From IMG/VR virus record IMGVR_UViG_3300028840_004447: 64,000 nt of DNA; one strand, given 5' to 3'. The notes beneath the pieces were generated by a model. That model did no database searches. It was not told where the DNA came from and saw nothing but the letters and a program-made list of their open reading frames with translations. Below, in pieces: positions 5,493-63,182 of this stretch. Each line of letters opens with the position of its first letter. Position 1 is the first letter of the stretch. This DNA comes from a virus. A program made the position numbers and the translations under genes.

Positions 5493-5499
5493 TATATAG

Positions 5500-5566
5500 C
5501 CGTGGGGATAGGATGACGATCCGAAAAACCGAAATCCTGGCCGGTCTTCCCCACGGTCTGCTTTTT
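5500..5566 (+). terminator. Bulged hairpin plus T-run (possible terminator/attenuator)
   Basis: CCGTGGGGA (5500-5508) pairs with TCCCCACGG (5548-5556), inner AGGAT/ATCCT, followed by TCTGCTTTTT. Confidence 0.55.
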
Positions 5567-5618
5567 CCAGGAACCGAACAGACAACAACAACTCATTTAG
5601 TATAAGGAGACCTATATC

Positions 5619-34831: not shown

Positions 34832-35265
34832 ATTATTCTCCTTTTGTTTTTGCGGTCCAGGATCTCAACCAGTTCCGTAACAGGGATCGACCTCGACCAG
34901 TGTTGAACAGCATTCTCGATTAGTCCCGATCGGGGAACCTCCCCGAGGAATCCGTGACAAAGGTAATCGAAGATGAAATACTCCCGATCTACCTGAAGCA
35001 GAACAAACACATTTGCTCCAGCCATCCCGTGCCTCTTCAGCCAGCCTTTTTGGGCCGGGGTGAAATGGTCTAGCCTAAGCGGAGTAGTTGGACGCTTTGG
35101 CCATCTGTGAGCATACTTTAGCTCGATCCAGCCCATGGATCCATTCACGGTAGTTGTGAAGTATACATCCGGCGTCCCTTCATCAACTAGGTTCTCAATT
35201 CGTTCAGCAATCCAAACAGGCTTCATTCGATTATACAGATATCTCCAAAAACCAGATTCATTCAT
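34828..35265 (-). CDS. PD-(D/E)XK nuclease (VRR-NUC / resolvase-like)
   Basis: E..F...RIEN....GTPD......WIELK motif, adjacent to the polymerase. Confidence 0.75.
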   Translation of the reverse strand: MNESGFWRYLYNRMKPVWIAERIENLVDEGTPDVYFTTTVNGSMGWIELKYAHRWPKRPTTPLRLDHFTPAQKGWLKRHGMAGANVFVLLQVDREYFIFDYLCHGFLGEVPRSGLIENAVQHWSRSIPVTELVEILDRKNKRRII

Positions 35266-37196
35266 TTTACATCACTCCAATCTCTTCCCGTGTCAGGATC
35301 CACGACAACGGGAAGCTTCAGGGGGATTGCTCGTTCCATCAGTCGGGCCGATTCTGCAAAGGCCTCTTTTCCTGCGGGCGTGTTAGGAACCGACCAATCC
35401 AATTCATCGTGGACTGTCAGAAGAGGAAATCCAAGCTCGTCAAATATCCCTGCTTCAGCAATATCAACCATGGCCTGCTTCATGATATCGGCTGCGCTGC
35501 CCTGATCGATAGCATTGAAGGCCTTATAACAGCCGGCCCGCTGAACTCCCCAACCGCCCATCTTCTTGGTAATTTCCAGCATCTTTTGTTTGTCTTTCAT
35601 GGCCGTTACCTCTTTGGCCAGATCAAACTTGTTTGGCTCCCACAGATCAAACCTTCGTTTCCGACCGAGGATAGTTCGGACATATCCTTTCTTCATTGCC
35701 TGAGATGAGGCCGTATTCAAAGTTCGCTTCAGGAAGGGGAGCTTCTCATAGTACATTCTGATGAAGCTCTCGGCCTCATCCTTGGGAATCCCGAGGGAAA
35801 CAGCCAGCTTTGCAGCTCCCATGCCATATATGATCCCGAAGTTAATAGTCTTCGCAGCCTTCCGGCTGATCCCCGCGGTGTCTGCGCACCACTGATGATA
35901 ATCGAGGGCCCGGTCATTCTTGAATGCTTCCCGAATATCATCTGCTCCTTCCCCGATAGCAAAATGGGCCAAGACCCGAATCTCAATCTGAGAATAGTCA
36001 GCCCTGCCCCACAGTTCCCCTTCATCAGGAATGAAGATGGATCTGCACAGAGGACCGAGCTCAGGATCTCGGCCAGGGATAAACTGCAAGTTAGGATTGG
36101 AAGAACTGAAACGGCCAGTCACCGTCCCACCCTCGTCTCCCTTGAGCTGGTTGAACTGGCAGTGGATCCGATCCCCGATTACCTGGTCAAGCAAGGATCC
36201 TCGAAGGAAAGTACCGATGAATTTGTCGACCTTCCGATAGTCCACAATTAGCTTTGTGACATCAGATCCGTGCCGCTCGAGCCATGTTTGTTGGAAGGAT
36301 GGTTGACCTGTCTTGGTCCTTGGATAATCCCAGCCTTGCTTTTTGAAATAGCGGCCAATGGACTGGTTTGCCCACGGGTCAATATCGAACTTCGTTAATT
36401 GGTGGCTCAGGCGCTTAAGTTCCTGCTCCTTTCTGTCAATGGCCACATGCAATTTCTGCATGTCTACACGGACGCCACGCTGTCTCATTCCGAGCAAGAT
36501 AGGTATTAAGGCAGATTCCATTTTGAACAGATCTATCAGCCCTTCACGTTGCATTTTATCCCATTGCTTGAGAAAGATCTGAATCGGTTGGATAGCATCA
36601 GACTCGGCATATGGGCCGACAATGTTCGAGGGGAGTTTCCAGAGGTGTTCTTGGGGCTTGGATTTCTTGCTCTTTCTGAAGGGCCGGGTCGCTTCCTCGA
36701 TCAGGTCTTCATTTTTAGTTTCACCCAAATACTCCTGGCATAAACTGTCGAGGGAATAGACCCGTTTGTTCTCATCAATCAGGGGTTCTGCCACTTGGAC
36801 GTCATAAAATGGACCTGCAACAGGCACGCCCTCTGCATATAACCAGTCAAGGTCATAGAGCAGGTTTGCCCCGATCTTAGGTTGGTTGGGTCTGCACAGT
36901 TCTTGCCGGGCCCATTTGAGGACCACTTTCTTATTGAACTGCGGACCCTCAAAATGGCCGAATGGCAAATACCATGTCTGTCCTTCAGGAACCGCGATCG
37001 AAATCCCGAGAATATAGTTCCCCTCCCGACGGACACCAGGTCCTTTTGTTGTCAGGTCTTTGTCTCGGGTCTCGATATCCAGCCCAATAGCTCTTGCGTC
37101 TCCGAGTCGGGGGAGCTGTTCCGGAATTTCCCAATCTGATTTGGGCTGGAATAAAGGTTGCTGAAAGGCATCCACAGTCGACCTTGAGATTTCCAT
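35262..37196 (-). CDS. polA: Family A DNA polymerase with 3'-5' exonuclease
   Basis: DIET (ExoI), TGRFSSSNPNLQ, DYSQIE (motif A), AKTINFGIIYG (motif B, Phe at the 762-equivalent), VHDEL (motif C). Confidence 0.95.
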   Translation of the reverse strand: MEISRSTVDAFQQPLFQPKSDWEIPEQLPRLGDARAIGLDIETRDKDLTTKGPGVRREGNYILGISIAVPEGQTWYLPFGHFEGPQFNKKVVLKWARQELCRPNQPKIGANLLYDLDWLYAEGVPVAGPFYDVQVAEPLIDENKRVYSLDSLCQEYLGETKNEDLIEEATRPFRKSKKSKPQEHLWKLPSNIVGPYAESDAIQPIQIFLKQWDKMQREGLIDLFKMESALIPILLGMRQRGVRVDMQKLHVAIDRKEQELKRLSHQLTKFDIDPWANQSIGRYFKKQGWDYPRTKTGQPSFQQTWLERHGSDVTKLIVDYRKVDKFIGTFLRGSLLDQVIGDRIHCQFNQLKGDEGGTVTGRFSSSNPNLQFIPGRDPELGPLCRSIFIPDEGELWGRADYSQIEIRVLAHFAIGEGADDIREAFKNDRALDYHQWCADTAGISRKAAKTINFGIIYGMGAAKLAVSLGIPKDEAESFIRMYYEKLPFLKRTLNTASSQAMKKGYVRTILGRKRRFDLWEPNKFDLAKEVTAMKDKQKMLEITKKMGGWGVQRAGCYKAFNAIDQGSAADIMKQAMVDIAEAGIFDELGFPLLTVHDELDWSVPNTPAGKEAFAESARLMERAIPLKLPVVVDPDTGRDWSDVK

Positions 37197-37585
37197 AAAT
37201 CCTTTCCTTCTGTCGGGTAATCCTCATCAAAGACAAGGATCGTGCATGAAGTGTTGAGGAGCATGGCCGTACAGATAAGGCAAGGGGCCGTTGTAATGAA
37301 GGCCATTTGTATGCTGTAAGGATCCTGGCATTGCAATACAGCATTTACCTCAGCATGTACGGCCACGCATTTATCAAGATCCTGTCCACTTCTGCCGATC
37401 CTCGGGCACGATGCTTCAGTGCAGTGGGGCATCCCGGCTGGAATACCGTTATACCCCGTTGCCTTGATATGGTTCCGCTCATTGACGAGGACACAACCGA
37501 CTTTCCGGGTCAGGCAAGTGGATCGCTGTGCAACCAACTTGGCCAGCTCCATAAAGTATTCATATTGGTCCAGTCTGGGTTTCAT
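37052..37585 (-). CDS. dCMP deaminase-like zinc deaminase
   Basis: RSTC..RKVG, TGYNG.P.G.PHC, HAE.NA, PC..C. The 3' end overlaps the polymerase start by 145 nt. Confidence 0.9.
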   Translation of the reverse strand: MKPRLDQYEYFMELAKLVAQRSTCLTRKVGCVLVNERNHIKATGYNGIPAGMPHCTEASCPRIGRSGQDLDKCVAVHAEVNAVLQCQDPYSIQMAFITTAPCLICTAMLLNTSCTILVFDEDYPTEGKDLWKSQGRLWMPFSNLYSSPNQIGKFRNSSPDSETQELLGWISRPETKT

Positions 37586-38301
37586 TAGAAGATATTCCTG
37601 TCCTTCAGATCCCCGTGGAATGCATGCAAAGATCCAAGAAAGTGAGTGAAGTTCCCCGCTTCGATACGGAGTTCTTCTGCAATGTGCTTCATCAGTTGGA
37701 TTGTAAGGAAAACGTCCGCGCCGAAGAACTTGATGAAATCACAGGATCGCTGGTTGTAGATCAGATGCAGCTTGTTTGCCCGAATCATGAACTGGTAGGT
37801 CAAACTGCACGGAACTCTGTCACGTCCGCCCCAGTTCATCATATCCTGGTGCCGATCATACATGGTCATGATGGCCTGCCGGGAGTTCGGCCGAAGTCGG
37901 AGTTCATTTACGACATAGCTGATCTGTTCTTGCCACCGCTCCGCGTATGAATAGGAGAACTTGCCGTCACGAAGGAAAGGTTCCCACAATTGCTTGTTCT
38001 CTTTCCAAGCTGTGCCGGGGTTCAGGGTTGCCCCGACCGGCATTCCGAACAGACCGCCCAGCCGTTCTCGCTCTTCGGCCTTCAGCCAAGCAGCATTCAA
38101 ATTGAGGTACTGAATGAGCTCGGACAGGTCTTCATATTTGGTAAGTGTGTATGCGTACCCGAAAAGCTCGATGGTCTGGAAGTCTGGGTTATCCGCAACC
38201 TCCTGATCCTGAACCGTGGCCGTTTGGTATCTGATCCCCATTTCAAACAGATCCCGCTCGACCTCTTTCACCATTTCTAACGTGTTCTGATAAATCCTCA
38301 T
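37585..38301 (-). CDS. Thymidylate-synthase-family enzyme with dCMP-type specificity residue (putative dCMP hydroxymethylase/methylase)
   Basis: SRQA, catalytic PC, QRSCDFIKFFGAD (Asp where dUMP enzymes have Asn177), GSLH.F. Confidence 0.8.
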   Translation of the reverse strand: MRIYQNTLEMVKEVERDLFEMGIRYQTATVQDQEVADNPDFQTIELFGYAYTLTKYEDLSELIQYLNLNAAWLKAEERERLGGLFGMPVGATLNPGTAWKENKQLWEPFLRDGKFSYSYAERWQEQISYVVNELRLRPNSRQAIMTMYDRHQDMMNWGGRDRVPCSLTYQFMIRANKLHLIYNQRSCDFIKFFGADVFLTIQLMKHIAEELRIEAGNFTHFLGSLHAFHGDLKDRNIF

Positions 38302-38478
38302 TCATGCCTCCTTTTTGACTTTCTGAGGGTTAAGATATAACTTGCAAAACGACTTCATATAAAGACGATAGCATTTCACGGTACATACATGGTCGCCATT
38401 ATCTAATTTCCACATGGATCGGCAGTTTGTGAGATTTGTCCCGCATTCTGCACAGTATATTTCTTGCTCAGTTTCCAT
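38302..38478 (-). CDS. Small Cys-rich (zinc-finger-like) protein, probably leaderless
   Basis: CAECG...HVC...C. The ATG lies 7 nt from the -10 box and has no RBS. Confidence 0.5.
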   Translation of the reverse strand: METEQEIYCAECGTNLTNCRSMWKLDNGDHVCTVKCYRLYMKSFCKLYLNPQKVKKEA

Positions 38479-38484
38479 GGGTTC

Positions 38485-38513
38485 TTTATACCATAAAGAA
38501 ATTATTCTGTAAA
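38485..38513 (-). promoter_or_regulatory. sigma70-type promoter
   Basis: TTTACA-N17-TATAAA. Confidence 0.75.
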
Positions 38514-38520
38514 CCATTTT

Positions 38521-38590
38521 TCAAAAAAGGACGCCCGACCAGGGAGGTAGTCTGGCCAGGCGCCCGAACTCGGATCTGGTTGGCGGCGAG
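38521..38590 (-). terminator. Double hairpin plus U-tract after the C5-MTase-like gene
   Basis: On the - strand: CTCGGACTGGTT..AACCAGATCCGAG, then GGGCGCCTGGCCAG..CTGGTCGGGCGTCC-TTTTTT. Confidence 0.75.
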
Positions 38591-38602
38591 AACCAGTCCG
38601 AG

Positions 38603-39826
38603 CTACCTCTTACAAGGCAACCAGCAAGTTTGACAGATGAGCTTTTGCCGTGCCTTGGGTTTGTATCCGTGGGTCTCACAATACCATTTCTTCGCCTCAT
38701 CGATATAGGGATTCGGGTTGATGACCCGCTGATTGAAGAGCTTCTCCCGGGTTTCCACAACGGGTTTCCCCGCGATATGGGCTGCAATAAGTTCAGCCAC
38801 ATACGTGCAGAACTGAACCGGCATGAATTTGCCGATCTGCTTATAGACAGCCGAATAGGTTTTGAAGTCCCTCAGGTAATCCAGCGGATAGAAAATGAAA
38901 TCATCCGGGCATCCTTGGATCCTTGCCCGTTCCCGCATGGTCAGGGGATTCAACGTGTCCTCTCTGTAGTGGTTATCGAGAGCAGATCCCCCGCCGGTCA
39001 TAACGGGGCAGGTATTGTCCAGACAGATCTTCGAATAGCCGGGTTTGAAATGCTGGACACCCTGCTTGTTGTAGTACTGAAAGTTCCGCTTTGAAGGATA
39101 ATCCCTGATGACCTCTTTGAAGTCGCCCAGGGTCACAACCTCCTTGTCTCGGGTCTCAGCGAAATTGTGTGGGCTGAACCCGTGCAGCCGATCCTTATCC
39201 TTCACATGCACGTGATTGATCTTTTTGATGTCCCTCTTCGGAGGTAGTCCTTTGAGCATATGCCGCAAATGGGTAATGTGCTCAAATTCCCCCGGGACAA
39301 AAACGAACTTTTCCTTCTTCAGTGCACCGATCATGAAGAACCGCCGACGGAAGAACTGCGAATTGCCGTAATGGTAATTCGAAATCCATTCGGGGAACAA
39401 ATCGTAGTCGGGCAGGGCCTCTTTCCATTGCTGAATTGTCCAGCCGATCAGTGACTTCGGAAGGTTGTCCTGAACGAAGAACCGTGGCTTCAGGCGATTG
39501 ACCAGTTCACAAAATAGCGGAATATCTCCCGGGTCTTTCAGCTTAGCCGTCTTGTTCGGCCTGAGGTTGGAATAGGATCCACACTCGGGATGACCCATGG
39601 CCAGATCTATCTTCCCCCGAAGAGCACGGATCTGTTTCTCATCCAGTTCATCTATCTTATGGACGAGGAATGCTCCGGGGAAATTCTCGGTGAATGTGTT
39701 CCGGCCTTGGTCGTCCTGCCAATGGTAGTATGGACGCCATTCAATATTTCCGAGGACAGTAAATCCTGCCGCTCGGGCTCCGATCAGCATCGAGCCGATC
39801 CCTGATGTTAGTCCAATTGCCCTCAT
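38603..39826 (-). CDS. Divergent DNA cytosine-C5 methyltransferase homolog (possible carboxymethyl/alkyl transferase)
   Basis: Start ATG 39826 with RBS GAAGGAG. Motifs I LTSGIGS, IV GHPECGSYS, VI QDNL, VIII Q..RRR, IX RERARIQG.PDDF, X QIGKFMPV. Confidence 0.8.
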   Translation of the reverse strand: MRAIGLTSGIGSMLIGARAAGFTVLGNIEWRPYYHWQDDQGRNTFTENFPGAFLVHKIDELDEKQIRALRGKIDLAMGHPECGSYSNLRPNKTAKLKDPGDIPLFCELVNRLKPRFFVQDNLPKSLIGWTIQQWKEALPDYDLFPEWISNYHYGNSQFFRRRFFMIGALKKEKFVFVPGEFEHITHLRHMLKGLPPKRDIKKINHVHVKDKDRLHGFSPHNFAETRDKEVVTLGDFKEVIRDYPSKRNFQYYNKQGVQHFKPGYSKICLDNTCPVMTGGGSALDNHYREDTLNPLTMRERARIQGCPDDFIFYPLDYLRDFKTYSAVYKQIGKFMPVQFCTYVAELIAAHIAGKPVVETREKLFNQRVINPNPYIDEAKKWYCETHGYKPKARQKLICQTCWLPCKR

Positions 39827-39828
39827 AA

Positions 39829-40698
39829 CTATTTCTCCTTCCTGAATACCAAAATGGTTTGGTATGCCGGAACTTTGATATCCAGATCCGGAAACCGTTT
39901 GTTGTATGTGTTCATGAACAGGGTCGGCGGATAATGGGGCAGGAGCGCCATACAAACGAACTCCATCCCGAGGCCGAGAAGAATCTCCCCGTACATCTTA
40001 TGGAGCAGGTACGGGGCTTTGTTCTGAACCATGTCCTTCACGCCGATGCAGAAATGCCCGCCAGCCTTCAGCATGCCCAAGCTGTCCTCATAGATCTGCC
40101 GAATGTCGTCCCAATATTGTGGAGTTTCCTTCATCCGGCCGAGACCCTTCTGTTGCAAATAGAACGCGGTGCTGGGTTTCCCGAAGATCTTTTGATGCTG
40201 ATCCCCGGAGTACGGGGGATTGTTTACAATTAGGCCGAACTTCCTGCGACCGAGATGCTTGCGGATATCCCGTGCGTCTCCATCCACGATGTTCCACTGA
40301 ATGGACTTGGGGAGTCCCTGCTCCTTCCAGACATAGTTCACATTTGCCTGAGCATACTCGGCAAACTCCAGTTCAACACCGGCTGCACACCTGCCCAGCA
40401 TCATGGCTTCGACGGCTGTTGTCCCGACGCCAATTGTGGGATCAAGCACCCAGTCTTTCGGTTTGGAAAATTCCTGAATGCACCAGCGGGCAACATGGAG
40501 AGGAGTCTTGGCAATATGGGCGAGGTCGGCCTGTTTGTTGTAATACTGCCGGCGCTCCAGTTTGCTATACGGGGTTCCATCAGGACGGATCAGGACGCCG
40601 CGGAATGTCTTGGGCTTGCAGAAGTCACAGTTGCAGTGATAATCCTTTGGCGTCCGTTTGAGGGGCTTTACTTCAACAGTCTCAATCTCATACTTCAT
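39829..40698 (-). CDS. Amino (N6-A / N4-C type) methyltransferase
   Basis: VLDPTIGVGTT (SAM binding), GDAR, NNPPY (catalytic). N-terminal HCNCDFC. Confidence 0.82.
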   Translation of the reverse strand: MKYEIETVEVKPLKRTPKDYHCNCDFCKPKTFRGVLIRPDGTPYSKLERRQYYNKQADLAHIAKTPLHVARWCIQEFSKPKDWVLDPTIGVGTTAVEAMMLGRCAAGVELEFAEYAQANVNYVWKEQGLPKSIQWNIVDGDARDIRKHLGRRKFGLIVNNPPYSGDQHQKIFGKPSTAFYLQQKGLGRMKETPQYWDDIRQIYEDSLGMLKAGGHFCIGVKDMVQNKAPYLLHKMYGEILLGLGMEFVCMALLPHYPPTLFMNTYNKRFPDLDIKVPAYQTILVFRKEK

Positions 40699-41072
40699 AA
40701 TTCCTCCTTATCGTAATGTCTTGTGGATATGCGTTTTCGTTCGGGGTTGTATCCTGTGTCACCCTTCCCGATCGGCACGATTACAGAGAAGCCGAAAAGC
40801 AGGGGCATCCCTTCTGCGGATAGGATATTGTTGCAGCAAAACTCGAGCAGGGATTCCATGCCGTGCAGTCTCTCGACGAAGTCCGCTAGTTTCCGCTTTC
40901 GGTAATCAACCTCACCGGCCAAGGAAATAGCTTTGAGTATATTCTCCTTCAATACTTCTTCAGGGGAATGCTCATCCATGATCCCGACCAAAAGCCAGGA
41001 CAGCAATTCCGATCCCTTATAAACCGGGAGTGGTTCACTGCCCTGGATCTTTACCCAAGCTTGAACTCGCAT
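40695..41072 (-). CDS. Hypothetical protein within the modification cluster
   Basis: Tightly coupled to both neighbours. No recognisable motif. Confidence 0.55.
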   Translation of the reverse strand: MRVQAWVKIQGSEPLPVYKGSELLSWLLVGIMDEHSPEEVLKENILKAISLAGEVDYRKRKLADFVERLHGMESLLEFCCNNILSAEGMPLLFGFSVIVPIGKGDTGYNPERKRISTRHYDKEEL

Positions 41073-41073
41073 A

Positions 41074-41502
41074 TTAGTACTCGGACCGCTGGCGGAATTT
41101 GTTGACGAGGGATTTCTTCAGATACAGCATGGCCACATCCTTCGCATCCAGACCGGACAGGATAAACAGTTCGACCATGAAGTGAAGTGCATCTGCCAGC
41201 TCTTCATAGAAGTGATCCCGGTCGGTGAGCATCTGTGTCTGTTTCCAGGGTTTGTTCTTCAGGCAGTTCATGGCTTCGCCGAGCTCCTCGGTCACTCTCC
41301 AGGCGAAGTCTTTCAGTCGGGCCTGACCCTTGGCCGAGTCCAGATCAACAGGCACATCGGGCGAAAGGAGTAGGTCATTTGCAGCCTCAATCGGATGGTA
41401 CTTTTCCATGAGTTCTTTCTGCCGATCGAAGATAGCCTCGAGCATATCTGTATCCCCGAGGAAGTCCAGAATGTCTTCATCAGTTACATCGTTGATGTTC
41501 AT
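41074..41502 (-). CDS. All-alpha NTP pyrophosphohydrolase (dimeric dUTPase/dCTPase/MazG-like)
   Basis: EELGEA, KPWK, EELADALHF, Y..K..VN..RQ..Y. Confidence 0.85.
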   Translation of the reverse strand: MNINDVTDEDILDFLGDTDMLEAIFDRQKELMEKYHPIEAANDLLLSPDVPVDLDSAKGQARLKDFAWRVTEELGEAMNCLKNKPWKQTQMLTDRDHFYEELADALHFMVELFILSGLDAKDVAMLYLKKSLVNKFRQRSEY

Positions 41503-42862
41503 AGTACATTTCCTCCGCTAATCCTTTGAATTGGTTGATTAAGTGTAGCCGCCAGCTCATTTTGTCCTGACGGATGGCTGGGATCTTCAGGGCTTCTTTC
41601 TTCCGTGCTTGTATAGCTTGGGGGACAATATCTGCAAAGGTCTTCTTCAGGATTCGCTTGTTCATACGCCTCTCGTAAGGGATCTGTAGGGCGTTATTCA
41701 CGACATCCGGGGCTAAGAACGGGCTCCTGAGCTCCACGGTACTGGCCATCATCAGCCGATCCAACCGGGGCAAATGGTAATATACCAGTTCATCAAAGAT
41801 GTCCGTGTATTGGCTGTCATACTGCGCTATACGACGGTATCCGCCGAACAGCTCATCAGCCCCATCACCTGAGATTGCTACGTCGAATCCTTCCTTCCTG
41901 ATTGCCCGACCTAACAGATATTGGGGGAGCATGGATCCAAGGTCGACTGGTGTCTGGTTTGCAGCCAATGCCCCGAGCAGATCATCCCCCTCGAGTTCAA
42001 TCTGCTTCAGTTCCACACCTGAGAAGTCAATGTAGTTCAGCCACTCAGCCTCGTCGTTGTCCACGTGGAACACGGTCAGGGGTTGGTTGGAGAATTCTCG
42101 GGTGAGGTAATACACGATTGTGCTGTCCAGTCCTCCTGATACTAATAAGGAGACTGGCACATCTGATACCAGCCGATTCTTGACTGCTTCCTCAATGGCT
42201 GTTCTGAGCTCCCGGGTAGGTTGCCGTGGCCATTGGAGATTCTGCCTGAGGATATGCTCGACTTGCAGGTTCTCCATATTCAGGATCATATGGCAGTTCG
42301 CTGGGATCTTCATTATGTTTTTGAACGGGGTGGTCTCGGCTGGGTGATAGCCCCATTTAGCAGTGGCCGACATATTGTGCTGATCCCATTCCAGCTCATC
42401 AAGGAGCAGCATCAGTGGGAGAATCTCCGAGCAGATTGCTACAGATTCCTCGGCCACCATAATGTATAGGGGTTTCTTTGCAAGATGGTCAGTGAAGATA
42501 TGGGCGCGCTTGCCCGTGATTCTGCGATGGCCGTCTATATGCACAATAGACCAGAAGCCATCAAACCACTCAAAACTCTGGATGGGAATCCTGCCCATCA
42601 TCAGATCGTGGACGGCCTCGATATCTGAGGAATAGTCCCCGAACGTTTTGTAGTTGAATATCTCTCCGACGAATAAGGTCTGATCCCGAAACGGTTGGTC
42701 AAACTCAGGATCCAATCCTTGAATAGGCAGGCGGACGTGCCCCAGGGAATAGGTCGCGAAATGTTCGGCCCGCGACCTGATCCCCCGATGGGTCATGTGG
42801 TTGATCAGGGTGAGTAGATTTTCTTCATGGTTTTTTCCGATACATAGGGCTAATCCACACAT
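41480..42862 (-). CDS. Asparagine synthetase B-like glutamine amidotransferase
   Basis: N-terminal MCG (Ntn nucleophile), HRG, GH.RL.I, GEI.N, KPLY, SGGLDS, SGDGADELFGGY, DR..MA..VE.R.PFL. Confidence 0.92.
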   Translation of the reverse strand: MCGLALCIGKNHEENLLTLINHMTHRGIRSRAEHFATYSLGHVRLPIQGLDPEFDQPFRDQTLFVGEIFNYKTFGDYSSDIEAVHDLMMGRIPIQSFEWFDGFWSIVHIDGHRRITGKRAHIFTDHLAKKPLYIMVAEESVAICSEILPLMLLLDELEWDQHNMSATAKWGYHPAETTPFKNIMKIPANCHMILNMENLQVEHILRQNLQWPRQPTRELRTAIEEAVKNRLVSDVPVSLLVSGGLDSTIVYYLTREFSNQPLTVFHVDNDEAEWLNYIDFSGVELKQIELEGDDLLGALAANQTPVDLGSMLPQYLLGRAIRKEGFDVAISGDGADELFGGYRRIAQYDSQYTDIFDELVYYHLPRLDRLMMASTVELRSPFLAPDVVNNALQIPYERRMNKRILKKTFADIVPQAIQARKKEALKIPAIRQDKMSWRLHLINQFKGLAEEMYYEHQRCN

Positions 42863-43370
42863 CGTGCAATTCCTCCGTTGGCATGGTATCCCGATTGAAC
42901 CAGAGAATATTCAAACCCGATCGGACCATCCTCATCATCACCCGGTCGTACTGGTAGATGAGACGCAGTCGCTGAGCCTGAACCTTCTCCACATGGTCGG
43001 GCAGTTTGTGTGCTTTGGCTGTTATAAGGTGCCCCGTGATCGTCTTGATTGATGGACGACAGAAGACGATGAGAGGATCCTCTTTGAGTAGCCGACCAGT
43101 AAAGGACTGGATATCCTCATCTGATAGGAGACAGCCATCGCGGACAATGGGACCATATACCTGCTCGGAAAAGAGTGCGAACCGATCCACAAGGGTCTCT
43201 TTCCCGGGCTGTTGCAGATCCAGGACGGAGTCCATACGGCAGAGCAAATCCGCCCTCGATTTCGGTGGTCCCTGGGTCGGAAACAGGGAGAAGCTATCTG
43301 GGGCTTTTTCGAGTAGGTACTGCACCAGATAACTCTTCCCTGAACCGTCCGGGCCTTCGAAGATGATCAT
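42825..43370 (-). CDS. P-loop nucleotide (dNMP-like) kinase
   Basis: IIFEGPDGSGKS Walker A and DR motif (VDRF). Confidence 0.8.
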   Translation of the reverse strand: MIIFEGPDGSGKSYLVQYLLEKAPDSFSLFPTQGPPKSRADLLCRMDSVLDLQQPGKETLVDRFALFSEQVYGPIVRDGCLLSDEDIQSFTGRLLKEDPLIVFCRPSIKTITGHLITAKAHKLPDHVEKVQAQRLRLIYQYDRVMMRMVRSGLNILWFNRDTMPTEELHDVWISPMYRKKP

Positions 43371-43371
43371 C

Positions 43372-44232
43372 TTAGGCCTCGTCCCCCGTTGCCACGGAGT
43401 AGGTCTTATCCTTCCGGTTGAACTGAATGTCGATCATGTTCTCCGGCTTGGTTCGCTTGGCGTTCCGGAGAATGGCACAGGCGGTGACCAGATTCTTGGC
43501 ATCATACCCGGTCCGCTCAATGAGCTCTTCCTGCTTCCAGACAGGCTTCTCATCGAAGGCGGACTTCAGGAGACTGGACTTGGTAATCCGCGGTGCCGGT
43601 TTGCCGAGGGCCTTCAGCCCCTCGAAGATGGTGCTGGTCAGCTCCCCTTTGTTCTTCCCGGGGCCGTCCAGTTCGAGGGCCTTCTTCAGGCGTTTCAGAT
43701 CCCCGACGGACAGTTCAGCGAGGTCTTCCTCTTTCGCGATTTCCATGTAAACATCGTCGGCGCAGATCTCTTTTGCGGCCTTCGCGCTGTTCACGGTTTC
43801 CTTCAGTGTCATTTCGTTTGTGTCAATGATAAATCTCTTAGCCATGGTGGGCCTCCTTTTAGTGTTGGGTCTCGATGACCCGAAGTTAGATTTGATGAAA
43901 GCTTCCTGATCTTCCACGCTGAGTACTATATCACCTTTCAAGCGCCTTGTAAATAAATTTTTCCGTATTTCTTTGTTATTTTTCACGCAATTACGGCAGT
44001 ATACGTCCGTCTCTGCCTTGAAGAAGCACCATCGTTTGTTGACCAACCATCCATGGAAGGGACAGTTGAAATCATCAGGCACGAACTCCCGATCAGTCTT
44101 CTTCGTGCAGTCCTCGACACATGGCCAGACATTACCCTTAGACTCCCGATGGTAGTATTGCCTGTATGCGCATTCGAGGACGGTAATCTGATCTTCCTCT
44201 TTCTCCTGATTCGGACAGATGAACTCGGTCAT
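43372..44232 (-). CDS. Winged-helix-like DNA-binding protein, family member 1 (internal start 43845; Cys-rich N-extension)
   Basis: Internal RBS AAGGAGG before MAKRF. C-terminus ITKSSLLKSAFDEKPVWKQEEL.ERTGYD.KNL..A..ILRN.KRTK. Confidence 0.6.
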   Translation of the reverse strand: MTEFICPNQEKEEDQITVLECAYRQYYHRESKGNVWPCVEDCTKKTDREFVPDDFNCPFHGWLVNKRWCFFKAETDVYCRNCVKNNKEIRKNLFTRRLKGDIVLSVEDQEAFIKSNFGSSRPNTKRRPTMAKRFIIDTNEMTLKETVNSAKAAKEICADDVYMEIAKEEDLAELSVGDLKRLKKALELDGPGKNKGELTSTIFEGLKALGKPAPRITKSSLLKSAFDEKPVWKQEELIERTGYDAKNLVTACAILRNAKRTKPENMIDIQFNRKDKTYSVATGDEA

Positions 44233-49213: not shown

Positions 49214-49774
49214 CTATTTCGACAGGATCCAGGTCGCTATCTGATCCTCGGGGCCATATTTTGCATGTAACTCGACCCGAAGACTGTGATCAGAAAAGAA
49301 GGAATTGTAATCATGATAAAAGCAATGCTTCGACGGAACCCGTCCTTCGATTCCGACTGATGAAGTTAGGAAGATCAGCCCGTTGGAAATCCGAACGTGC
49401 TCTGCAAAGATCCCGGCCAGGTCCTGAGGAGGAACATGCAGAAGGACATATGAAGAGATAACCAGATCAAATGCCCCCTCTGCTTCAGGGATCTGGTGGC
49501 CGTCCCATCCATTTGGCCGTTGCCCTGTTGCAGCTAGACAGCACGTTCGCATGGATTCCACAAAGTCATACATGGTCAGCCGAGCGCGGAACAGCAAACC
49601 TTTCTTCTCTAGGGCTGAATAGATCCGACCATAGCCAGACCCCACCTCGCAAATCTTTCGGAGAGGTTCCGTTTGCAGCAAGGCGGACAGGTAGTCCAGT
49701 TCAATATCATGGGTTTCTCCGCGGTAGGACTTCCCCCGCGCTTCCCAGTATTCTTTCGGATTGTAAGTGGTCAC
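49214..49774 (-). CDS. Class I SAM-dependent methyltransferase (small-molecule/glycan type)
   Basis: YWE.R, ICEVGSGYGR, FDLV.S..VL.HV. Confidence 0.85.
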   Translation of the reverse strand: MTTYNPKEYWEARGKSYRGETHDIELDYLSALLQTEPLRKICEVGSGYGRIYSALEKKGLLFRARLTMYDFVESMRTCCLAATGQRPNGWDGHQIPEAEGAFDLVISSYVLLHVPPQDLAGIFAEHVRISNGLIFLTSSVGIEGRVPSKHCFYHDYNSFFSDHSLRVELHAKYGPEDQIATWILSK

Positions 49775-56608: not shown

Positions 56609-57064
56609 CTAATAGCAGAGGTTCATGAATGGATGTTGCCCCTGTCGGTAATACTGCTCCTTAGTGATCCCGACTCCATACGGGATCAGGTATTGCAGAT
56701 TGCCGATCGTGTTCAGTTCGGGGATTGCTTCCACGGAATAGATCCGGAGGACCTCATCCTCAATCTGTTGGAAGTCATTCACCCGATCAGTGAAAGCATA
56801 ATACACGTGGCAGATAAATAGCCCGCTGTCATTATTGACACCGGACAAGCAAGCTGCATTCAGCCACGGGATATCATCCAGCCCCGTTTCCTCTTTGCAC
56901 TCCCGCTGGATTGCTTCCCAGCCTTCCTCACCATCTTCAATATGTCCACCGATCCCGTTCAGTTTCCCAGCCTGCCAGTCAGGCCGATTCTTCTTGACCA
57001 GAAGAACCCGAGATGCATCCTCGGTGAATATGAATCCAACTACATATTTTGACATCTCAGTCAT
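56609..57064 (-). CDS. Nudix hydrolase
   Basis: GIGGHIEDGE....AIQRECKEETGL Nudix box. Confidence 0.88.
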   Translation of the reverse strand: MTEMSKYVVGFIFTEDASRVLLVKKNRPDWQAGKLNGIGGHIEDGEEGWEAIQRECKEETGLDDIPWLNAACLSGVNNDSGLFICHVYYAFTDRVNDFQQIEDEVLRIYSVEAIPELNTIGNLQYLIPYGVGITKEQYYRQGQHPFMNLCY

Positions 57065-57522
57065 GTGCTTCCTCCCTTCTTAGGTTTCGGCGGATAATAC
57101 GGTTCCAGATCAGGTGGGATATCTTTGAAGACTGTTCCATACCTGACCGGGTTCTTAGCCACCAATTGACTTTGTTGAAATTTATGATACTGAGGATCAC
57201 CAACAAAATGCGGTTTCACTGCATACCCCATATGGGGCACGTACGGGATCTTCTGTTCGAACCCTCGCTCTTCCCACAAGGCCAAAGCTGTGTTGCAGTA
57301 GAATGTAAGTGAGCGAGAATACCCTTTCCATAAAAGGACGTCCGGGTGCTGAGCATATTTCTCCCAGAAGACCTTCTTCTGGATCGGCAAATGGTTCGTG
57401 AACTGAAACCCTGTCAACATCCCGACGATCGTGTAAGCATCTCGGCACTGCTTCCTCAGATCCTCATCGCTCAGGATCCGAAGAGAAGCCGTGTATGACT
57501 GGTATGGCAGATGGATATTCAT
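57061..57522 (-). CDS. Pyrimidine-dimer-glycosylase-like (DenV / MSMEG_6728-type) protein
   Basis: MNI.LPY.....S...L.D..L.KQ......I...HP...LW.GY...L..Y....L..WE.RG. Confidence 0.7.
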   Translation of the reverse strand: MNIHLPYQSYTASLRILSDEDLRKQCRDAYTIVGMLTGFQFTNHLPIQKKVFWEKYAQHPDVLLWKGYSRSLTFYCNTALALWEERGFEQKIPYVPHMGYAVKPHFVGDPQYHKFQQSQLVAKNPVRYGTVFKDIPPDLEPYYPPKPKKGGST

Positions 57523-58544
57523 CGCATTTCCCTCCAATCGTCTTCGGGGTAGTCCGGCGGATCTGGTTCATCATACTCAGGGTTGCTTACATCAGCATCA
57601 CAACAGCATGATATCTCGACCCACTGAACATCAACCCCGGGTGCGCCCCAATATTCATAGGATCCTATCCCCACGTCTTCCATATAGAATTCGCATTCCT
57701 CGCCGCATTCGTCACAGATCCCCGTGCCACTTCTAACTGGTTGCTGTGCCATGAGTAGTCTCCCAAAGTTTCCGCTCTGTTCTGTTCAGGAACTTCTGGT
57801 ACTTCCCGCAGGCCTTGCAATACAGTTCCTTGTGCGGTCCGTTATCCCGAACATCCAGATCAGAGCTTCCACAGTCTTTGCAGTTTGTGGGCAGCATTAG
57901 CCTTATCCTCCAATTAGGATTTCTTCTTAAGCCATCGGTCATATGACTTGGGCTCCTGTTTTGCTTTTGCCGGGTTCAGATACATGCTCAAAAGGATCGG
58001 TTCCCGTCGGACAGGGCACATAGCCCAGGATGTATATGGCTCGGCATGGACGACCTGAGGTCCTGATTTGAACTCTTTGAACTCAAGCGAATTGTGGTTT
58101 TTCCCGCAACGGGAGCAGTTCTTGATTCGGATCAGAACGACAGTTTGCTTGCCCTGTTTCTTAGTGCTGAGTACCTCGGCTGATGGTTTATTCGTCGGCA
58201 TCTGTCTCTCCAAAACGTTTGTTGAATTCATCAACAGCCTCGTTAGCATTTTTGGTCGCGGTCAGGTATCCGCTATCCGTACCGAGGGTCTTCAAAAAGC
58301 ATTCCATCCAAAGGGTTTCCTCTTTGTTGAAGATCTCCCCATCGCATTCACAGTCGTCCGGATCCGGATCCTCAAGGGACAGTTCCCCTGTATCAGCCAA
58401 CGGGTGAATGACCTCATCCAGAATTTGCTGGGATAAATCCATTAGCATCAGTTGGACCTTTGCATCGGCCTCCCGGATGTTGTGCTCGGACAGCGCGTGC
58501 TCTCCTAGTGAAATGATCATTCCTTGGATCTCTTTGTCTTCCAT
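57519..58544 (-). other. Four small hypothetical genes, several with CxxC pairs (57519-57752, ~57733-57900, 57914-58249, 58188-58544)
   Basis: Tightly packed ORFs on the operon strand. Confidence 0.45.
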
Positions 58545-58556
58545 TTCTTTCTCCTT

Positions 58557-60011
58557 TCAAAAGCGGTAGTATAAATCGGTTTGCGGTCTGATGATGAACA
58601 GGTTCTTTCGGGCCCGGGTTACTCCCACATAGAAGACCCGGTGTTCTGCGTCTGGATTCTGATCCATCCCCTCTTTGGTCCTGAACGAAATATCTGACAT
58701 GACTGCCACATTGTCAGCCTCTCCGCCCTTTACCCCGTGGATAGTATCGATATGAATGTTCGGCTGTCGAGCGAGGTTTCCCCCGTTCCTGAGGATGGCC
58801 TGATAATATGCCCGGCGTCCTGGCGGCATCTTAACCAGCGCGTCGAACCATGGGCGGTTCAGATGAAGGCCCACGTCCGTGTGGCTGATCTGATCCTTGT
58901 CGGGTAATGGTAACTTATGGCCAAGGGCTTTGCACATCGTCTGCGCGTCCTCAGCAAGCACCTGCTTGCCCTTCCGCAGTCTTTCATAGGTATATATGGC
59001 CACTCTGTCTTTCGGGTCTACAGATCCGCCCGACTTAGTTGTGTACGGATATCCTTGAAGTCGAACCTCGTCAATATATGTGTCAAGCAGGTATCTGTTC
59101 CGAGCCAGAAGCAGCCAAGACTCATCATTGAACTGTAACAGATCCGGAAAGGAAACCAGCTCCACGTGGCCTGCTTCCTCTTTCGGTCTGAAGACCTTAG
59201 TATACCGGGAAACGATTTTGCTTGAGACGGACTGGCCGACCTGATGAATTGTTTTGGGGATTCTGTGCGACTGTGCAAGGATCTGTTTGGATCCTTGGAT
59301 GGACAGGAAGGAATCTACGTCCGCCCCTGACCACTGATATATAGCCTGATCATCATCCCCCGCAATATAGATCCGCTGGCAGTTCCGAAAAGCAATCCGG
59401 ACCATTTCCCACTGTAGCTTTGACAGGTCTTGGGCCTCATCAATGATGGCCACATCCACGGGGATCGGGTCACGATCCAGAACAAACTGCTCAATCATAT
59501 CAGTGAAATCGATCAGGGCAAACTTCTGTTTGTATTCCTCAAAGGTATCATTGAAATATTTGAGCTGCATCCAGTCCAGATCTCGGCCGATCAGTCGCCA
59601 GGTTTCTTCTAACGACTTGCGGATGTTCCGTGCGTATCCGCAGACAAAGTTGAGGGTATCCCCGAGAAGCGAACTGTAAGGATCATCCTCATTCACAAAT
59701 CCCCTGAACGGGAATCCTGTCAAGTTGGCGATCTCCTTATAATGCTCCCGCTGGATAACCCGATCGGATGAAGCACCTGTCCATTTGAAAGCGATACTGT
59801 GCAGGGTTCTGAACCACGGCAGTTCTCTCTGGCTATAGCCAAACTGCTCCATGATCCGATCCCGGCCTTCATACGCGCCCTTCTTGGTAAAGGACACAAA
59901 AGCAATTCTGTCGACAGGGGTTCCGCCTTGGATTTCTTCTTCAAGGACTTCTAATAAGGTGGTTGTTTTCCCGGTTCCTGGCGGACCGAGGATGAGCTTA
60001 TTTTCTGGCAT
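58557..60011 (-). CDS. Superfamily 1 (UvrD/Rep-like) DNA helicase
   Basis: GPPGTGKTT, SFT.K, IIDEAQD, AGDDDQAIY.W.GA, QS.R.P, LARN, T.HG.KG.EA, YV..TRA. Confidence 0.93.
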   Translation of the reverse strand: MPENKLILGPPGTGKTTTLLEVLEEEIQGGTPVDRIAFVSFTKKGAYEGRDRIMEQFGYSQRELPWFRTLHSIAFKWTGASSDRVIQREHYKEIANLTGFPFRGFVNEDDPYSSLLGDTLNFVCGYARNIRKSLEETWRLIGRDLDWMQLKYFNDTFEEYKQKFALIDFTDMIEQFVLDRDPIPVDVAIIDEAQDLSKLQWEMVRIAFRNCQRIYIAGDDDQAIYQWSGADVDSFLSIQGSKQILAQSHRIPKTIHQVGQSVSSKIVSRYTKVFRPKEEAGHVELVSFPDLLQFNDESWLLLARNRYLLDTYIDEVRLQGYPYTTKSGGSVDPKDRVAIYTYERLRKGKQVLAEDAQTMCKALGHKLPLPDKDQISHTDVGLHLNRPWFDALVKMPPGRRAYYQAILRNGGNLARQPNIHIDTIHGVKGGEADNVAVMSDISFRTKEGMDQNPDAEHRVFYVGVTRARKNLFIIRPQTDLYYRF

Positions 60012-60817: not shown

Positions 60818-62338
60818 TCAAAATGGCTCCTCTTCCGGCCCATCAGGCCCGAATGGTTCTTCGATTTCTGGCAGGTCAAACTCTTCCACTTGCTTCTCGA
60901 ACTCAGGCACCCACCAAGTACGGATTTGCTTGCCTTTGACTTTCATTGGTTTGGTTTTGCCACCAATTGACGAGATTGCTTCATATATCTGGTTGGTACT
61001 GTATGCAGCAAACTTCTTGCTGCTAAGGTATTTGATCAGATCAGACGACAGGAAATAGGTCTTCTTTTCCTCGGCATTTGTCCACGGTCTCCCCCTCAGC
61101 AATCCGTCTCGCTGATCATCCACACCGGACGTGCAGAAAGTCTGCAAATGAAATAAGAACTGTCCTCGAGGTCCTGCATCTACCGGGGCATCAATGATCT
61201 CACACTTGTCCAGTTTCTCACCTAACAGACGATCCCAAGTATCAGCCTTCATGCGCGGCGGAATCTTCTTCACTCGTTCCATGCACACTCTGCGAAATCT
61301 GTTCTGGTCCATCAGGTCGGACGTGTCAAATTGAATGAGCGTGGATTCAACGCTCATATACCATATAGGGGGATCTGTCTCCAGACATTTCAAAATCCCC
61401 ATCTTCAACCGAGGCGTGGATTCTGATTGCCCTATTCCAAAGGGCTGAGTCATGCAGCGGTCCCGGTTGCAAAATTCCTTAATTGGTGGCTTATTGCACG
61501 TGTAGAAGTAGGTCTTCTTTTTGTGGGGTTTCATCACTTTGACCAAGGTTGAAGACTTGGCCGGCGGGTCAACATACGTTCTGTTTATCTCTTCTAAGTG
61601 CCCTTCCCAATCCTCCGGATATTTGAGCTTGCAGTAAACAGCAAAGTTGAAAAGGCTTGCATCTTTTTCCCCTGACTGAACCCCACGTGTGGCTAAGTAC
61701 TGCAAGCACGGCGGAGCATCAGACAGGGCCTCTACAAGTTTAGGTTCTATCTCCTCTAACTGTTCTTCCGTGACTGATAATTCCCCAGCATACTCAAGGA
61801 ACTCCTCCAATTCAAGCAGTGGCTCGCCATCCTTATAAGCATAGCGGGTCGTATGTTCAGCCTCGAAATATGGAAGGTTGATCCAGTTCCCTATCTCATC
61901 ATCGTCATTGATCTCAGTTTGTTTGGGGAATATCTCGGCATCGGGGTGACCGAGTGAGGCTGCATATTCGAACAGTTTGTTCCGAAGGATTATTGCAGAA
62001 ATCGGTTCATTGAGGAAGATGTACAGGTGTGCTCCGCCCGACTTACTCCGACACAGAACAAGGGGCAACTCCATGCTCACGAGCTGCCTGCTCAATGTCT
62101 CAAGGGGCAATTTGTAATCATCTACATCTATCGCGCCCCAGAAGCACGTGCCATCCGGTCTGATCGGAATAATGCCGAGACCTACCTTACCTTCGAGATG
62201 CTCTTGCCAGTGTTGGTCGGTCAGGGGCTCGACCTTGGTATAGGCTCGCCCCTGGACCTTTTGCTGAGCAGTCTTCTCAATAAGGTAGATCCCGAACGCA
62301 TCATCCCGACCCTGAAATAACTCAGGAAAGGATTTCAT
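60818..62338 (-). CDS. Archaeo-eukaryotic-type primase-polymerase with PriCT-like region
   Basis: W..HL.G..GLGIIPI, WGAIDVD.Y, RSKSGGAH.Y.F, GN.INLPY, PPC. Confidence 0.85.
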   Translation of the reverse strand: MKSFPELFQGRDDAFGIYLIEKTAQQKVQGRAYTKVEPLTDQHWQEHLEGKVGLGIIPIRPDGTCFWGAIDVDDYKLPLETLSRQLVSMELPLVLCRSKSGGAHLYIFLNEPISAIILRNKLFEYAASLGHPDAEIFPKQTEINDDDEIGNWINLPYFEAEHTTRYAYKDGEPLLELEEFLEYAGELSVTEEQLEEIEPKLVEALSDAPPCLQYLATRGVQSGEKDASLFNFAVYCKLKYPEDWEGHLEEINRTYVDPPAKSSTLVKVMKPHKKKTYFYTCNKPPIKEFCNRDRCMTQPFGIGQSESTPRLKMGILKCLETDPPIWYMSVESTLIQFDTSDLMDQNRFRRVCMERVKKIPPRMKADTWDRLLGEKLDKCEIIDAPVDAGPRGQFLFHLQTFCTSGVDDQRDGLLRGRPWTNAEEKKTYFLSSDLIKYLSSKKFAAYSTNQIYEAISSIGGKTKPMKVKGKQIRTWWVPEFEKQVEEFDLPEIEEPFGPDGPEEEPF

Positions 62339-63169: not shown

Positions 63170-63182
63170 GATAACTTCCTCC

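Follow-up and report, generated by a model that had tools for sequence, protein, structure and literature searches.

Why would a phage keep, in one operon, a thymidylate synthase (TS) homologue and a homologue of the C5-cytosine methyltransferases (C5-MTases)? Because both target C5, their co-occurrence is a puzzle. The two genes lie in IMG/VR virus record IMGVR_UViG_3300028840_004447, a contig from an uncultured marine phage, of which a stretch of 64,000 nucleotides (nt; hereafter the window) was analysed, within a cassette at 35262-43370 on the minus strand. On balance, we consider it probable that this conserved phage cassette serves to build DNA with modified, and probably hypermodified, cytosine. 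That the phage replaces deoxycytidine (dC) with a C5-modified dC before replication appears likely. The preliminary description of this DNA, made from the letters alone, had proposed a cytosine-replacement pathway. That proposal is well grounded in the co-occurrence of the core genes and in published metavirome work, but simple replacement gives way to probable hypermodification, because the cassette also holds a C5-MTase homologue with a lysine in motif X (Lys-type) and an AsnB-like ligase.

Replacement of cytosine before replication is known as a general kind of pathway; what is new here is the clade of the TS homologue, its signature and its partners. No paper was found on the combination of a TS homologue with a C5-MTase homologue and an asparagine synthetase homologue. 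Two recently discovered ways to modified cytosine, TS-type nucleotide chemistry and the chemistry of carboxy-S-adenosylmethionine (carboxy-SAM) on DNA, appear to come together here in a single operon. Which restriction, CRISPR and type IV systems can stop a phage depends on the hypermodification of its DNA, and phage DNA modification enzymes have given tools for epigenetic sequencing, among them T4 BGT, mSCD-B5 and the carboxymethyltransferases.

Residue signature and phylogeny of the TS homologue

The open reading frame (ORF) of the TS homologue (37585-38301) contains YNQRSCDFIKFFGADVF. The string RSCDFIKFFGAD is present, and alignments with solved TS chains and E. coli ThyA match its Arg to Arg166 and its final Asp to Asn177. 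By HMMER and by MAFFT, R185-S-C-D188 pairs with E. coli R166-S-C-D169, and D196 pairs with Asn177, 11 residues past the Arg. When 1.84 billion cluster representatives were searched with a profile, 220 family clusters were obtained at E<1e-30; with clusters defined at 50% identity, the family comprises at least 220 clusters and was found on 42 IMG/VR contigs. The Asp that the preliminary description had noticed 11 residues after the Arg was present in 139/139 aligned family representatives and Asn never appeared in its place, so that Asp177 (E. coli numbering) is a family trait and not a chance occurrence. This Asp had also been taken to mark an enzyme acting on deoxycytidine monophosphate (dCMP), which agrees with published mutagenesis linking residue 177 to the choice between dCMP and deoxyuridine monophosphate (dUMP), and with published residue rules (PMC8670742; PMC13326640). 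Under these rules Asp177 denotes dCMP, a bulky hydrophobic residue at 143 goes with methyl transfer, an acidic residue at 143 goes with hydroxymethyl or hydroxyl products, and Asn169 denotes the flavin-dependent 5-hydroxy-dCMP synthases; every Asn169-bearing enzyme tested made 5-hydroxy-dC (PMC13326640). A predicted dCMP-type activity is therefore supported by the Asp177 signature.

In E. coli numbering, the enzyme has Arg143, Cys146, Ser147, Arg166, Asp169, Phe173, Asp177 and His207. The catalytic Cys146 (C165, in 'VPCS'), Ser167, Asp169 and His207 are all kept, and the C-terminus extends 12 residues beyond His207. Among the 139 representatives C165, R185-S186 and H226 were invariant, while Asp169 (Asp188) and an Arg at the Leu143 position (Arg162, three residues before the catalytic Cys) were each found in 138. 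Family members carry Ser or Thr at 147, and His or Phe replaces Gly173, a residue kept by every folate-dependent comparator aligned. Several features lean towards a non-methyl product: Ser/Thr147 (as in T4 gp42 and RB69 gp48; Pro in Xp12), the charged residue at 143, the short C-terminus, the lack of dihydrofolate reductase (DHFR) and the gp56-type pyrophosphatase. With Pro147, a full C-terminus and a DHFR or PRA-PH partner all missing, an Xp12-type methylase is less likely, although hydroxymethylation is not thereby proved.

A maximum-likelihood tree was built with T4 gp42, Xp12, PaMx74, SPO1 gp29, M6-like and ViI-like dUMP hydroxymethylases, T5-like TS, E. coli ThyA and RB69 gp48 as comparators. 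The window enzyme and its relatives formed their own clade (support 100/98), separate from the ThyA+Xp12 methylases, gp42, the dUMP hydroxymethylases and gp48, with long branches and deeper relations that are unsure. The phylogeny suggested in the preliminary description, with T4 gp42 and the dUMP hydroxymethylases, therefore places the enzyme with neither. As for the label 'T4-like', a C5 modification of dCMP ahead of replication is likely, but orthology with gp42 fails, as the enzyme stands in its own clade and has neither an acidic residue at 143 nor Gly173. The TS homologue would accordingly be neither a T4 gp42 nor an Xp12-type methylase, judging from its residues and its place in the tree, and belongs to a separate, uncharacterised clade.

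An AF2 model of the enzyme (pLDDT 75.6, pTM 0.78) gave 396 PDB matches at E<=0.001 in Foldseek; all of the 50 matches listed were TS-fold, and ranks 1-2 were 9iqc/9iqu ('phage HY126 dCMP hydroxylase AfhB'). By phmmer, 9iqu/9iqc scored 1.6e-10 versus about 1e-6 for TS chains. In BLASTP the top characterised match was RB69 gp48 at 58.9 bits, in a near tie with Xp12 (56.6 bits) and SPO1. Because gp48 and Xp12 score so alike, the likeness to AfhB is too unspecific for assigning hydroxylase chemistry. The NCBIfam TS models all fell far under their cut-offs, the best being a short archaeal TS model, and the copies in the closest cultured relatives, Clostridium perfringens phages (39% identity), are annotated 'thymidylate synthase'. 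For this large TS-fold family of at least 220 clusters, the product is not assignable by the published residue rules.

No second ThyA-type TS or DHFR was found in the window by tblastn, and there was no match to the ThyX family among the window ORFs scanned with Pfam. Among the related phage loci and records (designated L001, L002, L003 etc.), L026 carries two TS homologues, a dUMP-type enzyme of 293 amino acids (aa) with Asn177 (4900-5781) and a 237-aa family member with Asp177 (14473-15186). Since a separate Asn177 homologue is present, the Asp enzyme of L026 is not its thymidylate source.

An unannotated family of 240-310 aa adjoins the TS homologue in 17/29 family loci without a Lys-type C5-MTase homologue and in 0/13 loci with one. 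Examples are L036:9200-9994, L041:10708-11436, L043:9090-9998 and L063:9050-9796, as well as Clo-PEP-1 gp2 (L001:11208-11957). In hhalign, the family matched the TS catalytic core weakly (E about 4e-4), a Cys, 'RS.E' and an Asp falling at corresponding positions, and the slot could here be filled by another TS-fold enzyme, a very divergent one.

Genes of the cassette and the core module

Ten genes, mostly abutting or overlapping, were placed at 35262-43370 on the minus strand by ORF listing, Pfam and PHROG:

42825-43370, minus strand: P-loop kinase resembling dNMP and thymidylate kinases, 181 aa, with 'FEGPDGSGKS' (PHROG 761 'thymidylate kinase', 3.7e-13)
41480-42862, minus strand: AsnB-like amidotransferase/ligase, 460 aa (Pfam Asn_synthase, 1.1e-44; GATase_7)
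41074-41502, minus strand: all-alpha NTP pyrophosphatase of the dimeric-dUTPase/MazG type, 142 aa, candidate dCTPase/dUTPase (Pfam dUTPase_2, PF08761)
40695-41072, minus strand: small ORF without a family match, 125 aa, following the pyrophosphatase
39829-40698, minus strand: NPPY amino-methyltransferase, 289 aa (Pfam N6_N4_Mtase, 3.8e-16; weak UPF0020)
38603-39826, minus strand: Lys-type C5-cytosine-methyltransferase homologue (Pfam DNA_methylase, 1.3e-22)
38302-38517, minus strand: Cys-rich (zinc-ribbon-like) ORF, 71 aa, between the C5-MTase and TS homologues (ORF listing)
37585-38301, minus strand: TS-fold enzyme of the Asp177 clade, 238 aa, predicted to modify dCMP at C5 (Pfam Thymidylat_synt, 2.8e-15)
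37052-37585, minus strand: zinc deaminase of the dCMP/dCTP family, 177 aa (Pfam dCMP_cyt_deam_1, 2.6e-17; PHROG 174, 1.1e-35)
35262-37196, minus strand: PolA, a family A DNA polymerase with a 3'-5' exonuclease domain (DNA_pol_A, 1.5e-66; DNA_pol_A_exo1)

A kinase, a dCTPase-family pyrophosphatase and a deaminase had been reported beside PolA, and all are indeed present on the same strand, the pyrophosphatase having PF08761 in common with gp56. The C5-MTase homologue, the N6/N4-type methyltransferase and the AsnB-like amidotransferase in 37052-43370 were additions to that earlier list.

Against PF08761, the window pyrophosphatase scored 32.4 bits and T4 gp56 25.4 bits, both over the 22.9-bit cut-off; gp56 aligned with the C-terminal 42 residues of the window protein at 36% identity. 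The protein is a PF08761 (dUTPase_2) member and a predicted dCTPase or dUTPase. When 42 IMG/VR loci were collected with the TS-homologue profile, the pyrophosphatase was present in 40/42, PolA in 29/42, the deaminase in 26/42 and the kinase in 24/42. The TS homologue and the pyrophosphatase are therefore the core module, their pairing being near-universal in the family.

The kinase is 29% identical to the N-terminal part of RB69p045, a 'thymidylate kinase' of the RB69 5-hydroxycytosine cluster, and the last 38 nt of its gene are shared with the start of the AsnB-like gene. In the deaminase, which is 29% identical to that of Xp12, the zinc motifs HAE ('VHAEVNA') and PCxxC ('APCLIC') are present. 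The end of the deaminase gene and the start of PolA share 145 nt, read in different frames (37052-37196); a similar overlap of about 108-118 nt was seen in L002, and PolA follows the deaminase in related loci. The deaminase had been put forward as an equivalent of T4 cd: a deaminase of the right family is present, but the role of cd is not required of it, as Xp12-like deaminases make deoxythymidine triphosphate (dTTP) from 5-methyl-dCTP.

Metavirome contigs that pair an Asp177 TS with a deaminase, in most cases close to an NTP pyrophosphatase and PolA, were enriched in DNA whose cytosines are fully modified, and the top co-localised domains in those contigs include PRA-PH pyrophosphatase and PolA (10.1101/2024.12.05.627091; PMC8670742). 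Of seven deaminase-linked Asp177 TS homologues taken from modified metavirome contigs, five produced 5-methyl-dCMP, and a linked deaminase converted 5-methyl-dCTP to dTTP (10.1101/2024.12.05.627091).

Domains of the uracil-DNA-glycosylase superfamily recur in related cassettes (L005:4554-5732; L017:9753-10268; L017:14583-17060), where they occur fused to a P-loop kinase, free-standing after the pyrophosphatase, or fused to PolA.

C5-MTase homologue and AsnB-like ligase

The likely start of the C5-MTase homologue is the ATG at 39826, which a AGGAAGGAGA ribosome-binding site precedes. Like a normal C5 enzyme, the protein has the catalytic Cys and the Q-x-R-x-R motif, while motif IV reads HPECG for PCQ, motif VI QDN for ENV and motif X IGK for GN. 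The Lys falls on the motif-X Asn in M.HaeIII alignments and, in BLASTP, on Arg350 of CmoX from Synechococcus phage S-B43 (SpCmoX). This Lys and the catalytic Cys were invariant in 14 cassette homologues, all with motif IV as HP(E/S/D)CG and with D(N/D)L replacing ENV in motif VI. In the wider survey the residue was again Lys, with Arg in two members, and the family motif was HP(E/S/D/K)C. M.HaeIII is a closer relative of the window protein than SpCmoX (21% identity), and the 'SPPC' motif that defines CmoX is not matched (HPEC).

In CmoX, the carboxylate of carboxy-SAM is bound by Arg350, which corresponds to M.HhaI Asn304, and in engineered M.MpeI N374K the Lys binds it likewise; the CmoX product is 5-carboxymethyl-cytosine, which the asparagine synthetase homologue CmoY then amidates; about 76% of contigs with Arg-type CmoX carry CmoA (PMC12783734). 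Canonical C5-MTases can bind DNA with 5-hydroxymethyl- or 5-hydroxy-cytosine (PMC11347137). It is for this reason conceivable that a re-tooled C5-MTase pocket acts on a pre-modified base, although this would be unprecedented. A class-I SAM methyltransferase ORF (Methyltransf_11) at 49214-49774 on the minus strand was considered as CmoA and rejected on NCBIfam results.

The AsnB-like ligase combines an N-terminal class-II glutaminase domain, in which Cys2 ('MCGL') is intact, with a synthetase domain bearing the PP-loop 'SGGLDS'; its score against NCBIfam asn_synth_AEB was under the cut-off. The glutaminase domain is missing from SpCmoY, to which the ligase gave no significant BLASTP match. A second ligase cluster with a glutaminase domain has been noted, its activity not being assayed in that work (PMC12783734). 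A large protein search returned more than 100 metagenomic homologues, a single-protein IMG/VR scan gave no match, and tblastn against cultured phages found a Streptomyces phage fragment only. All seven sampled ligase contexts (7/7; 41-48% identity) were related cassettes in which the gene stood beside the C5-MTase homologue, the TS homologue or both, usually with the dUTPase_2 pyrophosphatase and the deaminase. The AsnB-like gene is thus not a stray metabolic gene. Together, the C5-MTase homologue and the ligase look like an analogue of CmoX/CmoY, but they fall outside the family definition of the authors who described those enzymes.

Nested co-occurrence of the cassette genes

An IMG/VR profile scan gave 42 Lys-type C5-MTase loci scoring at least 280 bits. 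A TS homologue lay within 10 kb in 39 of them, in most cases 0-700 nt away and in the same orientation; of the three loci without one, at least two (L086, L092) were at contig ends. The ligase was present in 33/42. Among 14 distant relatives of the C5-MTase homologue (53-130 bits), such neighbours were seen in 2/14 (Fisher p = 6.5e-8). Starting from loci chosen by the TS homologue, the Lys-type enzyme was found in 13/42 and the ligase in 8/42, with both in 7 of these 8 (Fisher p = 4e-4). In S-B43, where ordinary cytosine is the substrate of the Arg-type CmoX, no TS homologue was found. The genes are therefore nested: the TS homologue with the pyrophosphatase is the most widespread, the Lys-type C5-MTase homologue occurs within that set, and the ligase mostly within the latter. 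This is what a stepwise pathway predicts, and the observed pattern suggests stepwise hypermodification of a new base. A distinct Lys-type C5-MTase family and a glutaminase-bearing ligase family are in this way genetically tied to the TS homologue.

Comparison with known systems

With the T4 system (gp42, gp56, gp1 dNMP kinase and cd), the window shares an Asp177 TS fold, a PF08761 pyrophosphatase, a phage kinase and a deaminase, and in both the nucleotide would be modified before replication; after the catalytic Cys, the window enzyme has Ser where gp42 has Thr. It differs from T4 in that the TS homologue is of a separate clade (about 24% identity), has Arg for gp42's Asp at 143, lacks Gly173 and has a shorter C-terminus. 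The window genes stand in one cassette beside a family A polymerase and include the C5-MTase homologue and AsnB-like ligase but no DNA glucosyltransferase. In tblastn, neither T4 beta-glucosyltransferase nor the Xp12 HAD hydrolase had a match in the window.

Xp12, PaMx74 and the MetaGPA contigs (mSCD-B5 deaminase) resemble the window in having an Asp177 TS followed by a deaminase, with an NTP pyrophosphatase upstream, in a PolA phage. Such a neighbourhood has been linked experimentally to fully modified cytosine DNA (PMC8670742; 10.1101/2024.12.05.627091). In contrast to the window enzyme, the Xp12-type enzymes cluster with ThyA, are 289-298 aa long, have Pro147 and Gly173, and are encoded between a PRA-PH pyrophosphatase and DHFR. 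HY126 AfhB (9iqu, 9iqc), RB69 gp48 and DLP3 gp80 are similar in size (234-238 aa) and share Ser/Thr147, the lack of Gly173 and Asp177; RB69 also has a thymidylate-kinase-like gene nearby. These flavin-dependent 5-hydroxy-dCMP synthases have Asn169 and Glu143, whereas the window family has Asp169 and Arg143, and the window is without their arabinose or glycosyl-transfer gene cluster.

The CmoA-CmoX-CmoY system of S-B43, which makes 5-carboxymethyl-cytosine and then its glycine amide, is comparable in the basic residue at the M.HhaI Asn304 position, the loss of the PCQ Gln and the pairing of a C5-MTase homologue with an ATP-dependent ligase of the asparagine synthetase family. Unlike S-B43, the window has Lys for Arg, HPEC for SPPC, Asp for Glu in motif VI and no CmoA; its ligase has a glutaminase domain, and its C5-MTase homologue goes together with an Asp177 TS homologue, a gene missing from S-B43. 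In S-B43, a 135-aa ORF (L030:127-534) that appears MazG-like by eye lies directly upstream of cmoA-cmoY-cmoX; if it is so, a pyrophosphatase neighbours the published carboxymethylation cluster too. In tRNA, the modification cmo5U arises when CmoB carboxymethylates 5-hydroxyuridine using carboxy-SAM. The likeness to the scheme considered here lies in hydroxylation at C5 followed by carboxymethylation of the oxygen; the differences are the unrelated folds, the RNA substrate and the lack of an AsnB-type amidation.

Proposed pathway and alternative explanations

The activities and the product proposed here are predicted from gene content and residues. The gp56-family pyrophosphatase would cleave deoxycytidine triphosphate (dCTP), and also deoxyuridine triphosphate (dUTP), to the monophosphate. 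The TS-fold enzyme, with Asp at the base-specificity position, would then add a group onto C5 of dCMP before replication. Hydroxymethyl, favoured by the published residue rules, is the product to which we would give the most weight, if somewhat short of an even chance; methyl and some other group are each unlikely and equally so, and hydroxyl slightly more unlikely. The phage kinase would begin rephosphorylation and PolA would insert the analogue, while the deaminase may supply the thymidine branch, using dCMP or the modified dCTP as its substrate. As an add-on after replication, present only in this sub-lineage, the rebuilt C5-MTase homologue (Gln to Gly, Glu to Asp and Asn to Lys) would act on the new base and install a group with a carboxyl, the simplest candidate being carboxymethyl donated by host carboxy-SAM, and the glutamine-dependent AsnB-like ligase would convert the carboxylate to an amide. 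More tentatively, the cassette might make a cytosine derivative new to DNA, in which an oxygen-bearing C5 group is followed by a carboxylate group placed by the re-tooled C5-MTase and then by amidation; we regard this as possible but doubtful. Within that proposal, 5-(carbamoylmethoxy)- or 5-(carbamoylmethoxymethyl)-cytosine might be the end product, a suggestion equally speculative. If the scheme is true, this would be the first natural C5-MTase homologue with a pre-modified cytosine substrate, and the first link between the thymidylate-synthase and carboxy-SAM routes of phage DNA hypermodification.

Several points weigh against hypermodification by this route. Both the TS homologue and the C5-MTase target C5, so a sequential scheme needs a methyltransferase that acts on a substituted base, for which there is no natural precedent, and the invariant catalytic Cys fits attack at C5 of plain cytosine better than O-alkylation. 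CmoA was absent from the window, from five related records and from within 10 kb of the 42 Lys-type loci. The ligase is coupled translationally to the kinase and the pyrophosphatase, and its role could be at the nucleotide level rather than on DNA. The nesting is also imperfect, because L003, a complete relative (82-kb contig), has the ligase without the C5-MTase homologue, and no methyltransferase was seen within 7 kb in L024. The co-occurrence counts and their Fisher p values ignore shared ancestry and are not phylogenetically independent. With regard to the first product, the residue rules derive from other clades, and the Xp12 methylase itself has Asn rather than a hydrophobic residue at 143. 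The short C-terminus was dropped as proof of a hydroxymethylase: it is compatible with methyl transfer, because the best NCBIfam match is a short archaeal TS model.

Were the TS homologue a dCMP methylase like that of Xp12, all cytosine would become 5-methylcytosine, the deaminase would turn part of the 5-methyl-dCTP into dTTP, and the C5-MTase homologue and ligase would be unrelated or would touch up residual cytosines. The 5-methyl-dCMP made by 5/7 deaminase-linked Asp177 homologues and the dTTP from their linked deaminase (10.1101/2024.12.05.627091) speak for this, as do the Xp12 and PaMx74 gene order of TS homologue then deaminase, a BLASTP score to Xp12 (56.6 bits) on a par with that to any characterised enzyme, and the folate-compatible Asp169. 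We nevertheless regard it as rather unlikely, given that the enzyme lies outside the ThyA+Xp12 clade and is without the full C-terminal segment, Pro147 and Gly173, that the DHFR and PRA-PH pyrophosphatase flanking the Xp12/PaMx74 genes are both missing, and that a recognisable deaminase is absent in 16/42 family loci. The C5-MTase homologue would moreover find no substrate in 5-methylcytosine DNA, yet it almost never occurs without the TS homologue. The clash of two enzymes competing for C5 would be removed if the operon held two independent systems, one supplying a thymidine-type nucleotide (deoxythymidine monophosphate via 5-methyl-dCMP, or 5-hydroxymethyl-dUMP) with cytosine left unmodified, and one, formed by the C5-MTase homologue and ligase, making motif-specific 5-carbamoylmethyl-cytosine in the manner of CmoX/CmoY. 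Each step at the DNA level has a direct precedent on plain cytosine in CmoX, CmoY and the engineered N374K enzyme (PMC12783734), the window protein keeps the catalytic Cys and Q-x-R-x-R of a normal C5 enzyme, and the kinase is thymidylate-kinase-like. Such independence would leave unexplained why a TS homologue is near the Lys-type enzyme in 39/42 loci and not in S-B43; many family cassettes have no deaminase, L026 has its separate Asn177 TS homologue, and CmoA was absent in all loci searched. The selection that enriched Asp177 TS and deaminase contigs kept only DNA with every cytosine modified (PMC8670742), and we consider two independent systems unlikely.

A further route, modelled on tRNA cmo5U, would make the TS homologue a flavin-dependent 5-hydroxy-dCMP synthase, with the Lys-type enzyme carboxymethylating the 5-hydroxyl from carboxy-SAM and the ligase forming the amide. 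As a nucleophile, a 5-hydroxyl is well suited to a sulfonium donor, and every step of this route has a precedent. The best solved matches by both phmmer and Foldseek are HY126 9iqu/9iqc, RB69 gp48 is the top characterised BLASTP match (58.9 bits), and like gp48 the window enzyme is short and without Gly173, with Ser147 where gp48 has Thr. The published Asp169-to-Asn diagnostic was not found, however, Asp169 being present in 138/139 members (PMC13326640); residue 143 is Arg and not Glu, and the tree gives no supported joining with gp48. The conserved Cys would be needless for O-alkylation and CmoA was not found, so that we think this route quite unlikely. Ordinary nucleotide metabolism, meaning a true thymidylate synthase among routine phage genes for dNTP supply and restriction evasion, would agree with the 'thymidylate synthase' annotation in the Clostridium perfringens phages (39% identity) and with the assignment to only the general TS family by Pfam and NCBIfam. 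An invariant Asp177 with Asn never found, NCBIfam TS models far under their cut-offs and a clade of its own make this very improbable.

Remaining genes of the cassette and window

Outside the cassette, the plus strand of the window encodes the HK97-type capsid, prohead protease, tape-measure protein and amidase; replication genes lie on the minus strand. The DNA of the window was seen in seven sequencing runs, all of them sediment or seawater metagenomes (Logan contigs) with no RNA run listed among them, and no cultured-phage match to 35000-44000 was found by megablast.

Within the cassette, the NPPY amino-methyltransferase is an accessory member, found in 14/42 Lys-type C5-MTase loci. It has the SAM motif 'DPTIGVGTT' followed by 'NPPY', and in L003, which has no C5-MTase homologue, it takes that gene's position upstream of the TS homologue. 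It also matched RNA guanine-N2 methyltransferase families (UPF0020, Trm14) weakly. The 71-aa Cys-rich ORF had no Pfam or PHROG match and did not recur in related loci. For the 125-aa ORF there was no match in Pfam, PHROG or NCBIfam, and atlas leads were under a useful score; a homologue occupies the same place in L002, and a hidden Markov model built from it and same-position ORFs found it in 3/42 TS-homologue loci.

At 9335-11551 on the plus strand, a 738-aa protein fuses GT1-type and GT2-type glycosyltransferases with a TPR region. It was discounted as a DNA glycosyltransferase, being located in the tail operon and absent from the five related records, and is probably a virion-protein glycosylation enzyme. 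In the early region, the minus strand (56609-57537, 58557-60011, 60818-62338 and 62348-63827) has genes for a NUDIX hydrolase, a DenV-like pyrimidine-dimer glycosylase, a UvrD-type helicase and an AEP-type primase, together with two members of the Pam3 gp33/gp34 families. The helicase, the primase and the cyanophage Pam3-like genes recur in several related cassettes.

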